A DNA stretch of 64,000 nt from a virus. The position numbers were made by a program, and so were the translations under genes. Shown here piece by piece: positions 12,697-51,791 of this stretch; positions within the stretch are counted from its first letter, which is position 1; every line of letters starts with the position of its first letter. The notes under the pieces were generated by a model, which did no database searches, was not told where the DNA came from, and worked only from the letters and a program-made list of their open reading frames with translations. The stretch lies in the IMG/VR virus record IMGVR_UViG_3300047160_018755, positions 32,001-96,000 of that record. One strand, written 5' to 3'.

Positions 12697-12773
12697 GCCA
12701 GCGTGGACTGAAGTAGATAGGCCCGGGATTGCAACCCCCGGCCATGCCGGTGCAAGTCCGGCCACTGGCTCCA
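12697..12773 (+). tRNA. tRNA-Cys(GCA)
   Basis: Acceptor GCCAGCG/CACTGGC, loop TT-GCA-AC, U73, encoded CCA. Confidence 0.8.
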
Positions 12774-42185: not shown

Positions 42186-42191
42186 CATGAG

Positions 42192-42264
42192 CATGTCGTC
42201 AAGGAATCGAACCTTGCTTTTCCGTTTTGGAGACGGAACCGTTCCCAGGACCGGTCAACGACAT
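42192..42264 (-). tRNA. tRNA-Trp(CCA)
   Basis: TCCGT-CTCCAAA-ACGGA. Confidence 0.8.
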
Positions 42265-42660: not shown

Positions 42661-42734
42661 TGGAGCACCTACCGCGAGTCGGACGCGGGCTTCCTCGTTG
42701 GCAACGAGGTTTGCTACCGTAACAACTTAGGTGC
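42661..42734 (-). tRNA. tRNA-Gly(GCC)
   Basis: GCACCTA/TAGGTGC, CCTCG-TTGCCAA-CGAGG, U73, encoded CCA. Confidence 0.85.
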
Positions 42735-42955: not shown

Positions 42956-42975
42956 GTGTATTTCTATCGAATCTG

Positions 42976-43050
42976 TAGGTCCGGTGGGGGATGATCCCAC
43001 AACCTTTCGCTTAAGAGGCGATTGCTCTGAACCAGTTGAGCTACGAACCT
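42976..43050 (-). tRNA. tRNA-Lys(CUU)
   Basis: loop CT-CTT-AA; T-loop ATCATCC. Confidence 0.8.
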
Positions 43051-43107
43051 GTGGGGGTCTCTCCCTCAGTCAAGCCTGGATTTCGCGGCGGCTTTCCCTA
43101 CTTTGGC

Positions 43108-43184
43108 GCTGGCGACTTAAACCACTCGTCCACAGGCCCGATCTTTCGAACGAGCCCGGCGGGATTCGAACCCGCGTCTCCAGC
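43108..43184 (-). ncRNA. Circularly permuted tRNA-like RNA (YrlA-like)
   Basis: GCTGG, T-arm, CGGGCTC-G, 11-nt loop, GGGCCTG, D-arm, CCAGC. Confidence 0.7.
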
Positions 43185-43191
43185 AATTCCG

Positions 43192-43458
43192 TTACCTGCG
43201 CTTCTTGCTGTCGAGCTTGGTCGCGAACGACCTCTCGGCAGAGCGCTGAAGATCGAGAGCCTTGCTGTCCATCGTCGAGCCACGCTCGGTCACGACCCAG
43301 CCCCTGCTCCACTTGCCCTCGTCGTCCTCGGCACTGTCGATCAAGATCTCGACGTGCTTGCCGACCTTGGCGAAGCTTGTTGGAATGAAGGCGGTGTGAA
43401 TCTGCTTGCCGCCACCTTCGCACGGCCTTTCCATCCTGCATTGCGTGTACGATGCCAT
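43192..43458 (-). CDS. Hypothetical protein inside tRNA array
   Basis: AAGGAAGAG SD; MASYTQCRMER... Confidence 0.7.
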   Translation of the reverse strand: MASYTQCRMERPCEGGGKQIHTAFIPTSFAKVGKHVEILIDSAEDDEGKWSRGWVVTERGSTMDSKALDLQRSAERSFATKLDSKKRR

Positions 43459-43553: not shown

Positions 43554-43617
43554 AAAGTAATGGGTCGGTTACGACCGACTGGCACCTCGTGGATGCCATG
43601 TAGCCGACTGACCCTCG

Positions 43618-43689
43618 TGCGCCTCGCTGGGATCGAACCAACGGCCTCTCCCGTGTCATGGGATTGCTCTTCCGCTGAGCTAGAGGCGC
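43618..43689 (-). tRNA. tRNA-Val(GAC)
   Basis: loop AT-GAC-AC, GTTCGATC. Confidence 0.85.
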
Positions 43690-43692
43690 AGG

Positions 43693-43766
43693 CTCCAGTG
43701 TGCTACCTTTACACTACCGCGCCCATAGTGGTGGGCTTGGGCGGACTTGAACCGCTACTCCTGGAG
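43693..43766 (-). ncRNA. Circularly permuted tRNA-like RNA with internal ACCA
   Basis: CTCCAG, T-arm, AAGCCC-ACCA-CTAT-GGGCGCGG, D-arm, CTGGAG. Confidence 0.6.
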
Positions 43767-43771
43767 TTTCG

Positions 43772-43843
43772 TGCGTCTTGATGGGATCGAACCACCGGCC
43801 TTTCCCGTGTGAAGGGACTGCTCTACCGCTGAGCTAAAGGCGC
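43772..43843 (-). tRNA. tRNA-Val(CAC)
   Basis: loop TT-CAC-AC. Confidence 0.85.
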
Positions 43844-45168: not shown

Positions 45169-46029
45169 ATGACCACCAGCACGAAGAACGGCAACCAGGG
45201 GCAGAACAACAACACCGAGAAGAAGGGCGGCACGCTCAGCTCAGCTGACGCATTGCAGCTCCTCTTCTCCACGGCAAACGCGCAGGGGTTGGAGCACGAC
45301 CGCGTCAACCCCGCACGGGTAGTGGAGCTGAAGAAGACGCTGGGCCGGTGGAAGAGGCCCAAGATCATCACGACGCCGAAGGGTGTCATCCTGCAAGGTG
45401 CCGACTACGTCGCGGCGCTGGCGGCAGCACCGAACGTCGAGGCCGAAGTGGACATCGACAGAACGGGCACGACCTCAAGGCGGGAGCTAAAGAAACCCGC
45501 AACTCCTGTCGAAGCTCTCACCAAGGCGGGAATCCAGGACGCAGCCTTCAAGCTGGCGGTCTGGCGCGGGCTCAGGGAGGGGGCAACATCCAACCCCGAG
45601 GCGGACACACCGAAGCAGCTGGTCGAGAAGCTCGCAGACCCGGCGTTCCTCAAGCCGTTCGAGGCGCTCAAGGCACCCTACGATGCCGTGTCGTCGCAGG
45701 GCGTGGCCAAAGCAGGGAGGCTGCGGTCCAAGATCGCATTTGCGGCCTTCCACCTGGCATACGCAGCCAACCCCAAGGTGATCGTCCAGCTGTACTCGGA
45801 CTTCATCGCAGGGAAGGCGCCCGCCGGCTCGCCGCTGGAGAAGCTCCTTCACGCAGCGAGGCACGACAACATCAACAGCGGCTCCGGCCGGCGTCCCTTC
45901 ATGCTGAAAGCCAGCATCCTGCTCGCAGCGCAGCTGGCAGGGGAGAAGGTCGAGCGCGCATCCGCAGACCCCGCGAAGGGTGAGAAGGCCGTCCAGATCT
46001 TCCTCTCCCAGACGCAGGGGAATGCCTGA
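45169..46029 (+). CDS. Degenerate ParB-like protein
   Basis: RVNPARV...W..PKIITTPKGVILQGADYVAAL (DGxHR replaced); many A-ending codons. Confidence 0.45.
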   Translation: MTTSTKNGNQGQNNNTEKKGGTLSSADALQLLFSTANAQGLEHDRVNPARVVELKKTLGRWKRPKIITTPKGVILQGADYVAALAAAPNVEAEVDIDRTGTTSRRELKKPATPVEALTKAGIQDAAFKLAVWRGLREGATSNPEADTPKQLVEKLADPAFLKPFEALKAPYDAVSSQGVAKAGRLRSKIAFAAFHLAYAANPKVIVQLYSDFIAGKAPAGSPLEKLLHAARHDNINSGSGRRPFMLKASILLAAQLAGEKVERASADPAKGEKAVQIFLSQTQGNA

Positions 46030-50565: not shown

Positions 50566-50895
50566 ATGAACAAGTTCTCGAACGTCAAACGGAAGATCCT
50601 GGGGCTCGTCGAGCGCAGCGTCCAGGAAGGGTTCTACCTCGCCAAGGGCTGCCAGATGCAGTTCGGGTCCGACAACGGGGATGAGACCGGCTTCTGCCTG
50701 GTCGGCCTGATCGCCCACAAGGCGAACAAGACCGGCAAGCCGACCTACTACCTCACCGCGGGTGCCGAGTTCCTCGACATCAGCGTTGGCCAGGCCTGTC
50801 AGCTGGAGGCGGGGTTCGAGGGGTGGACCCACTACAACACCGAGGACGAGTTCTACAAGCTCGGCAACCACATCAGGGAGACGTACGCGTCATGA
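50566..50895 (+). CDS. Paralog family B protein
   Basis: FCLVG...AGFEG...FYKLGNHIR; promoter TTGACA-17-TAAGGT at 50530. Confidence 0.7.
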   Translation: MNKFSNVKRKILGLVERSVQEGFYLAKGCQMQFGSDNGDETGFCLVGLIAHKANKTGKPTYYLTAGAEFLDISVGQACQLEAGFEGWTHYNTEDEFYKLGNHIRETYAS

Positions 50896-51413
50896 AGCTT
50901 CGCGAGTTCAAGAAGATCATCGCCGGCATGCACCCGGCGGCGTTCGCGCCCGCCTTCGAGCGCTGCCACAACGTCTCCGAGGTCCAGGTGGCCATCGAGG
51001 CCTTCGGCCTGGCCCGCGCCGAGCTGAGCAACATCGAGAAGCGCTACCGCGAGCGCGACCTGGAGCAGATGCAGGCCGTCGCCGTCCTGGAGGCTCGGAT
51101 CGACCTGCTCGACCAACAGATCGCTTCCCGGCAGATGGTCCAGGTCCGCGAGGCCGAGGAACCCCGCGAGGAGGTGATCCTGACCAAGGTCCAGCCCCAG
51201 GTGGGCCGCACCTTCGTCGATCGCATCGAGGTCATCAAGGCGGTCCGCGAGGTCAGCGGTATGGGTCTCAAGGACGCCAAGGACCTGGTCGACGAGGTCG
51301 CCGACAAGGGCTTCGAGCGCAAGCTCTTCACGGGCGTGACGTCCAAGGCAGCCGTGGCGGCCCGGGTGCTCGAAGCGGCCGGCGGCGTCGTCGTGCGCAA
51401 GGAGGCGTTCTGA
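50892..51413 (+). CDS. Protein with ribosomal protein bL12 (L7/L12) C-terminal domain
   Basis: RIEVIKAVREVSGMGLKDAKDLVD...LEAAGG. Confidence 0.85.
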   Translation: MKLREFKKIIAGMHPAAFAPAFERCHNVSEVQVAIEAFGLARAELSNIEKRYRERDLEQMQAVAVLEARIDLLDQQIASRQMVQVREAEEPREEVILTKVQPQVGRTFVDRIEVIKAVREVSGMGLKDAKDLVDEVADKGFERKLFTGVTSKAAVAARVLEAAGGVVVRKEAF

Positions 51414-51563: not shown

Positions 51564-51791
51564 ATGTCGTTCGTTCCGAAGATCAAGAAAGCGAAGCGCA
51601 AGGCCATCGCCCGTCGTTCGGGCAAGACGATCGCGTCGGCCATCGACCGTCTCAACGCGAAGCTCACCAAGCCCCACCAGTTCCCGGTCCACGAGAACAA
51701 CCAGCTCCACAAGACCTCAGCGGCGATCGCCGAGGACGCCCGCCGTCAGGAGCGCCTGATGGACCGCAAGCGCTGGAGCCACGCGGGCTGA
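51564..51791 (+). CDS. Basic hypothetical protein
   Basis: AGGAGG SD. Confidence 0.7.
   Translation: MSFVPKIKKAKRKAIARRSGKTIASAIDRLNAKLTKPHQFPVHENNQLHKTSAAIAEDARRQERLMDRKRWSHAG

Follow-up and report, generated by a model that had tools for sequence, protein, structure and literature searches.

Genes that encode the 3′ half of a tRNA before its 5′ half, with a short linker at the acceptor end, are known from Cyanidioschyzon merolae (reviewed in PMC4090602). These permuted genes keep an anticodon loop, which is split at the termini, and they yield decoding tRNAs through a circular intermediate. Y RNAs are defined by their partner Ro60, and the role of their tRNA-like half has been in question since 2014. 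The YrlA RNA of Mycobacterium smegmatis has a 7-bp acceptor stem, which makes it a substrate of RNase P, and is subsequently given CCA (PMC4201824). Among phages, Thermus phage phiLo encodes Ro60 together with the Y-like RNAs Yrl1 and Yrl2 (PMC12135203), and a TROVE protein with a tRNA-like partner has been described in jumbo phages (PMC7824862).

The present analysis concerned two elements, designated el1 and el2, in the tRNA operon of a soil phage from IMG/VR (genome G000), of which a stretch of 64,000 nucleotides, hereafter the window, was studied. As in C. merolae, the 3′ half of el1 comes first and the linker at the acceptor end is short; el1, however, lacks an anticodon loop. The elements share with the RNAs of phiLo and the jumbo phages that they are Y-type RNAs encoded by a phage, which are thought to redirect host RNA metabolism, but a bulged CGAA stem and a phage Ro60 are present there and G000 has neither. 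Compared with the M. smegmatis RNA, el1 has the same 7-bp acceptor stem together with a discriminator base, whereas the mycobacterial RNA contains the Ro60 motif and binds to Rsr, and the processing of el1 is predicted only. The likeness to YrlA as a class (RF02553; PMC4201824) comprises the order of the elements, the tertiary bases, and the covariation of the 15–48 pair; unlike YrlA, el1 lies in a tRNA operon rather than beside rsr and has neither the motif GNCGAAN0-1G nor an extended stem. A Ro60/TROVE gene within ~4 kb on the same strand, which serves as a criterion for YrlA (PMC4201824), is absent from G000. The distinctive point is that this phage has neither a Ro60 partner nor any Ro60 handle. 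With moderate confidence, we read el1 and el2 from their sequences as functional tRNA mimics without a Ro60 handle, which would be excised from the transcript of the tRNA operon by tRNA-processing enzymes.

Genome and Locus Organization

The G000 genome is complete (182,279 bp), with direct terminal repeats and a G + C content of 63%, and it encodes a major capsid protein with 58.5% identity to the one of Myxococcus phage Mx1. It contains 31 tRNA genes according to ARAGORN, one tmRNA, and an RtcB ligase. The earlier note had seen neither a Ro60 nor an RtcB gene in the window, and this was borne out. When the search covered the complete 182-kb genome, RtcB was found 2.2 kb past the window end, whereas neither the Pfam profile nor tblastn with the Ro60 of Mx1 as query detected a TROVE or Ro60 gene.

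The element el1 is located within a minus-strand array of 14 tRNA genes (ARAGORN), the order being Asn, Val, Val, Ala, ORF88, el1, Lys, Met, Gly, Gly, Lys, Trp, Glu, Arg, and Arg. Both el1 and el2 are on the same strand as the tRNA genes, and no promoter-like or terminator-like sites were found near el1. The coordinates of the features are given in Table 1.

Table 1. Features of the el1–el2 region, with positions in the window.
Feature	Position	Strand	Description	Evidence
el1	43108–43184	minus	permuted tRNA-like RNA without anticodon: closing stem, variable loop, T arm, closed 7-bp acceptor stem, D arm	sequence, fold, covariance models
el1 closing stem	43184–43180 with 43112–43108	minus	5 bp, GCTGG/CCAGC	
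el1 variable loop	43179–43176	minus	AGAC, 4 nt	
el1 T arm	43175–43159	minus	GCGGG TTCGAAT CCCGC, canonical	
el1 acceptor 3′ strand	43158–43152	minus		
el1 discriminator	43151	minus	G	
el1 acceptor loop	43150–43140	minus	11 nt; 12 unpaired bases with the discriminator	
el1 acceptor 5′ strand	43139–43133	minus	7 bp: 5 Watson–Crick and 2 G.U	
el1 U8 and G9	after the acceptor 5′ strand, before the D arm	minus		
el1 D arm	43130–43114	minus	class-II-like; 3-bp stem; loop with A14, G15, G18, G19	
el1 G26	43113	minus		
el2	43694–43765	minus	second, diverged permuted tRNA-like RNA	model R2, fold, re-permutation
ORF88	43192–43458	minus	conserved gene for an 88-aa protein; stop codon 7 nt upstream of el1	
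tRNA-Lys(ctt) leader	43051–43107	minus	carries GGCTTGAC (43076–43069) and GGGAGAGACC; homologous leaders in relatives	
tRNA-Lys(ctt)	42975–43050	minus		ARAGORN and Rfam
tRNA-Val(gac) and tRNA-Val(cac)	43617–43843	minus	bracketing el2	ARAGORN and Rfam

Structure of el1 and el2

The letter-by-letter reading of the minus strand at 43108–43184 that had been proposed previously matched the sequence exactly. The arrangement described with it, namely the 3′ half before the 5′ half, a closed acceptor, and no anticodon loop, was also confirmed by the sequence and by RNAfold. All 20 pairs of el1 and all bases of the usual tertiary contacts are intact in the sequence. The four-way junction was both the minimum free energy (MFE) and the centroid structure in RNAfold (−37.9 kcal/mol, z = −3.36), and one of 200 shuffled sequences folded equally well.

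In the native order, neither el1 nor el2 was called as a tRNA by ARAGORN (default settings, introns allowed, or lowered thresholds) or by the Rfam tRNA model at its gathering score. The weak Rfam tRNA alignment of el1 (18.3 bits) included only the T arm and an acceptor strand. However, ARAGORN called a tRNA when the el1 halves were re-permuted, i.e., placed in the order 5′ half, artificial 7-nt loop, 3′ half; the re-permuted form of el2 was called as well. Thus, comparison of the original and re-permuted orders recovered a tRNA only after re-permutation.

The second element lies 510 nt upstream of el1 and occupies the 81-nt spacer from tRNA-Val(cac) to tRNA-Val(gac), with flanks of 5 and 4 nt. 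It was found by covariance model R2 before entering any training set (28.3 bits, E ~5e-6), and its MFE structure is a four-way junction. CCA is encoded after the discriminator, so that ACCA follows the acceptor 3′ strand, and the acceptor stem contains two mismatches. A search of el2 against Rfam, including YrlA, gave no match. Among the 502 tRNAs of the loci examined, no donor tRNA close to el1 or el2 was found.

A Family of Elements in Mx1-Like Phages

The covariance model R1 was built from el1 alone, and two rebuilding rounds produced R2 and R3; el1, which belongs to the training sets of both R1 and R3, scored 112 and 68 bits with them. Structurally matching elements in Mx1 and G009 were found with R1. 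Junctions of adjacent ordinary tRNA genes, where the T arm of one gene is followed by the D arm of the next, scored up to 41 bits with R3; therefore, membership rests on the stand-alone criterion and not on the score alone. Only covariance-model hits that overlapped no tRNA gene were accepted, and many hits at such junctions were discarded. Chen et al. (PMC4201824) had warned of false positives of this type. In total, 11 stand-alone elements were accepted in seven records of Mx1-like phages (Table 2), and none of them overlapped a tRNA gene.

Table 2. Stand-alone elements in records of Mx1-like phages.
Record	Elements	Ro60 gene	Setting
G000 (complete)	el1, el2	none	inside tRNA operon
Mx1	45199–45265	present, 11.7 kb away	tRNA region
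G009 (complete)	tandem pair	none	upstream of PTH2 gene
G012 (15% fragment)	tandem pair	not seen in fragment	upstream of PTH2 gene
G024 (fragment)	two elements	present	flanking Ro60 ORF
G003 (80% complete)	one element	none	between tRNA-Arg and tRNA-Lys
G014 (fragment)	one element	present	~210 nt upstream of Ro60 ORF

The modules of the tandem pairs in G009 (L053 1438–1581) and G012 (L063 1430–1580) are separated by 4 nt, and a U-run comes after each pair; the pairs lie 130–230 nt upstream of a gene of peptidyl-tRNA hydrolase PTH2. PTH2 was rejected as a partner: it adjoins both pairs but is absent from G000. Co-occurrence with RtcB was also discarded, since RtcB was present only in G000 and G030 and does not track the elements.

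The acceptor hairpins of the family range from 2 to ~13 bp. The D arms are Ser/Leu-like in el1 and el2, Glu-like in the elements of G009, G012, and Mx1, and similar to the YrlA consensus in G003 and in the upstream element of G024 (G024a). Some members may have originated independently from different tRNAs. In a metagenome relative (L093), two weak stand-alone candidates with degenerate T or D arms (1561–1623 and 1717–1796; 25 and 21.5 bits) flank a tRNA-Met gene.

In an alignment of 10 members, whose pairing figures are inflated because the members were selected and fitted by structure-aware models, compensatory changes were observed in 17 of the 20 helix pairs, among them every one of the five closing-stem pairs, and 94.8% of cells were paired, against 36–50% with the partner columns slid by one to three positions. 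The covariation sought in related phages was present across family members, among which no sequence-level orthologue of el1 was found. The tertiary contacts, including the 15–48 pair, were not part of the search model. U8–A14 was found in all 10 members, and G19–C56 and T54–A58 in nine each. The Levitt pair 15–48 was G–C in five members, A–U in four, and another combination in one; the same G15–C48/A15–U48 covariation was reported for YrlA by Chen et al. (2014; PMC4201824). In three members, a non-canonical T loop (UGCAAxU) was accompanied by a change of base 18 from G to A. At the family level, this comparative sequence evidence demonstrates a tRNA-shaped body maintained by selection.

No orthologue of el1 at the sequence level was found by near or distant BLAST against GenBank phages, in IMG/VR, or in the relatives that carry ORF88. 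BLAST searches of the locus against GenBank phages returned generic T-arm matches only. An exact 22-mer of el1 had no match in IMG/VR, and a T-loop to D-loop pattern had 56 matches there, 51 of which were ordinary tRNA–tRNA junctions and none an el1 orthologue. The exact 23-mer of the el1 3′ half occurred at six loci of unrelated taxa in bacterial genomes; four of these were resolved by ARAGORN as ordinary tRNA-Lys, tRNA-Arg, or tRNA-Ser genes.

ORF88 and the tRNA-Lys Leader

The open reading frame upstream of el1, ORF88, has a GC3 of 0.83 and six homologues with 62–82% identity, which mark it as a genuine gene. Copies encoding 80–88 aa are present at L091 637–903, L092 3001–3249, and L093 2175–2393, each inside a tRNA array. 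The stop codon is always 7–12 nt from a tRNA or a tRNA-like structure, and in the relatives an ordinary tRNA stands at the place of el1, at most 12 nt downstream. Synteny comparison revealed that ORF88 and el1 form one insertion, specific to this lineage, which separates tRNA-Ala from the tRNA-Lys leader. The AF2 model of the protein (pLDDT 73) contains β strands and a basic C-terminal helix; no fold match was found in Pfam or PDB. The conserved C-terminus includes the Asp-Ser-Lys codons written ACAGCAA at 43211–43205, and ACTCCAA in L091. A role of this ACAGCAA as an RNA handle was rejected, and a search for a gene of the Ro60-shaped DUF2828 gave no match, as did its control search.

Downstream of el1, the leader of tRNA-Lys(ctt) contains a conserved motif composed of GGCTTGAC, 3–8 bases, and GGGAGAGACC or a variant of it, which in several relatives ends ~5–10 nt before the 5′ end of a tRNA. 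It was found in the window at 43076–43051 (minus strand) and at L093 1345, L091 357, and L092 3485. In L093, the motif precedes tRNA-Lys(ctt) directly after tRNA-Ala, with no tRNA-like element upstream. The heptamer CTTGACT at 43074–43068, 33 nt downstream of el1, had been likened in the earlier note to the 3′ strand of a Y RNA. Since it belongs to this leader, which is kept in L093, L091, and L092 where no tRNA-like element precedes it, CTTGACT is not a Y RNA strand and this likeness was rejected. The leader motif could represent a −35-like promoter box or a processing signal.

Relation to YrlA and Ro60

The phage Mx1 encodes Ro60 (vWA_Ro60, 64.7 bits; TROVE, 32.9 bits), annotated as the TROVE protein WNM70118.1. 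Its element gave a full-length alignment with Rfam YrlA (32 bits, E 5e-4), has a long closing stem, and is preceded at a distance of 28 nt by GCCGAATG, which fits the GNCGAAN0-1G motif. This YrlA-like Y RNA (OR576727.2, ~45169–45297; L039 1471–1599) is unannotated and lies between two tRNA-Pro genes, both of which were called by ARAGORN and are not listed in the record. Of the two elements that flank the Ro60 ORF in G024, the upstream one scored 42.1 bits against YrlA. The G014 element, which was in no training set, scored 43.9 bits with R3 and coincided with a full-length Rfam YrlA match of 37.3 bits, and the array-embedded element of G003 matched the YrlA module only (26.7 bits). The position of relatives' elements near or beside Ro60 and their YrlA matches thus indicated that the class of elements is the tRNA-like module of YrlA.

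The Infernal search of el1 with the Rfam YrlA model (RF02553) gave a local match to model positions 28–81, i.e., the T arm, acceptor, and D arm in the correct order; at 15.2 bits (E 3.2), it was far below the gathering score of 69 bits. No GNCGAAN0-1G motif was found within 60 nt on either side of el1 or el2 by a scan that detects the motif of Mx1. Folding of el1 with its flanks added no significant stem (z −0.46), and the el2 flanks leave no room for a Ro60-docking stem. The resemblance to YrlA-class Y RNAs noted earlier therefore stands for the topology, the local order in Rfam, and the matches of relatives, and fails for the motif, the long stem, and the Ro60 gene. These three absences weaken the suggestion that the element is a Ro60 adaptor.

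A complete Y RNA that docks to a host-encoded Ro60 (Rsr) through a stem of the flanking sequences is an unlikely alternative, although the module is of the YrlA class and is found alongside Ro60 in relatives. For el1, such a stem can be drawn with seven of eight bases paired, between CAAGCTCG from the last part of ORF88 and CAGGCTTG from the spacer that follows el1. However, on the 5′ side this stem would consist of codons for the conserved C-terminus of ORF88, and on the 3′ side of the tRNA-Lys leader, which is conserved and occurs also where no element precedes it. The missing motif, the flank folding, and the 5- and 4-nt flanks of el2 likewise argue against a docking stem.

Origin and Possible Function of the Elements

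We consider it improbable that the elements are scrambled pseudo-tRNAs without function. Such a remnant would have arisen by tandem duplication of a tRNA and loss or replacement of the outer halves, so that the 3′ half of the first copy and the 5′ half of the second remain; with two copies of one gene, these halves would be complementary from the outset. The lineage-specific insertion of ORF88 and el1 and the lack of an el1 orthologue in the data searched agree with this origin, and an odd tRNA at L092 3609–3684 shares CCAGC/GCTGG (there the anticodon stem) and the AGAC loop with el1 and resembles it in the T arm. In el1, however, every pair and tertiary base has been preserved, while nothing tRNA-like is left of the outer halves. 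A second copy (el2) occurs in the same operon, and the architecture recurs 11 times in seven records with covarying closing stems, sometimes beside Ro60, which also argues against a pseudogene.

Alternatively, the element might be an RNase P-directed 3′-end or stability element of the ORF88 mRNA. A precedent is the mascRNA of MALAT1, which is a tRNA-like structure. RNase P cleavage inside el1 would leave an mRNA ending in the T-arm hairpin, and the immediate vicinity of the stop codon in G000 and the constant presence of a tRNA at most 12 nt past ORF88 in relatives are in line with such a role. We regard it as very unlikely: el2 and the elements of G003, G009, and G012 have no ORF directly upstream, and an ordinary tRNA serves equally in the relatives, so that the permuted design would not be explained.

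The preferred reading is that of functional tRNA mimics, in which el1 and el2 would be small non-coding RNA genes whose product is an L-shaped tRNA body with a closed acceptor end and no anticodon loop. They would be transcribed within the minus-strand tRNA operon and released by the processing of their neighbours, with RNase P acting at the downstream tRNA and 3′ processing at the upstream one. RNase P cleavage at the 5′ end of tRNA-Lys(ctt) would set the 3′ end of the el1 segment. The 7-bp acceptor stem, the discriminator, and the 11-nt linker of el1 make a further nick by RNase P at G1 probable, like the one shown for the M. smegmatis YrlA. The mimic would then tie up proteins that recognize the elbow and the acceptor–T helix of tRNAs, and neither cleavage nor reading of an anticodon would be possible. 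The two mismatches in the el2 acceptor stem, the replacement of el1 by an ordinary tRNA in ORF88-carrying relatives, and the different D-arm types among members speak against a functional mimic.

The most likely use of the mimics, and a plausible one, would be that of decoys, i.e., uncleavable competitors that engage tRNA-directed nucleases of the infected host or other factors that bind tRNA; the target protein is pure conjecture. A comparable idea was put forward by Hughes et al. [quoted passage not shown] As a second option, the mimics might provide a link to host PNPase or Rsr; gel shifts have shown Ro60-independent binding of phage Y-like RNAs to host PNPase (PMC12135203). The tRNA-like half occurs in three ways, namely with Ro60 nearby or adjacent (Mx1, G014, and G024), as a stand-alone tandem (G009 and G012), and as a passenger of tRNA operons without Ro60 (G000 and G003), which points to a tRNA-mimic function that would not need Ro60. 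The phage G000 also offers a simple system for examining whether, as proposed in print, such mimics rival tRNAs for nucleases or other proteins that bind tRNA.

It is highly improbable that el1 and el2 are instead two-piece tRNAs without an anticodon, in which the linker would be nicked by RNase P, CCA would be encoded (el2) or added (el1), and charging would be carried out by a synthetase that ignores the anticodon, or that the ends of the pieces are re-joined into a decoding tRNA. The 5′ halves of both elements look class II, Leu/Ser-like. If either version were true, it would be without precedent among bacteriophages as a split or permuted tRNA system.

Hardly tenable is a true permuted tRNA gene of the C. 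merolae kind, in which an anticodon loop would result from joining of the ends, e.g., by the phage RtcB, followed by removal of the acceptor linker. The order of the halves, the RtcB gene in the genome, the ACCA of el2, and a post hoc resemblance of the el2 flanks GAAAC and GCCT to the halves of the 8-nt anticodon loop in the odd L092 tRNA are compatible with it, but the flanks of el1 and el2 give no 7-nt anticodon loop with U33, the family's acceptor hairpins of such varied length do not fit a mature tRNA product, and most relatives with elements lack RtcB. RtcB needs 3′-phosphate and 5′-OH ends; RNase P and RNase Z leave 5′-phosphate and 3′-OH ends, which RtcB would probably not join. Neither an Rnl1 nor an Rnl2 ligase was found in the genome; the Rnl1 control search likewise gave no match.

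Other Features of the Genome and the tRNA Regions

Just past the window end (97012–99568 of the G000 genome), the tmRNA gene adjoins the RtcB gene upstream of a second tRNA array. Within the window, 4 of the 15 ARAGORN tRNA calls had no Rfam support at the gathering score (51612–51701, 12697–12773, 42191–42264, and 42661–42734). Of these, the 90-nt call of tRNA-Thr(ggt) looks false and inside a coding sequence. A 196-aa ORF on the plus strand (50823–51413) matches in its C-terminal part the C-terminal domain of ribosomal protein L7/L12 (PF00542, 40 bits), an unusual cargo for a phage.

As a caution for annotation, genes of structured RNAs that escape tRNA finders can lie concealed in some spacers of tRNA arrays in phages. 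Other tRNA genes in the relatives' loci deviated from the usual form. Those at L092 3609–3684 and L066 1539–1611 have 8-nt anticodon loops (ARAGORN anticodons “tgaa” and “ttga”) and may be quadruplet-reading or otherwise odd. In G012, the Rfam tRNA match at L063 2240–2363 (46 bits) contains a 59-nt insertion inside the T arm; a gene of a GIY-YIG endonuclease is located nearby, and this may be an intron-containing tRNA.
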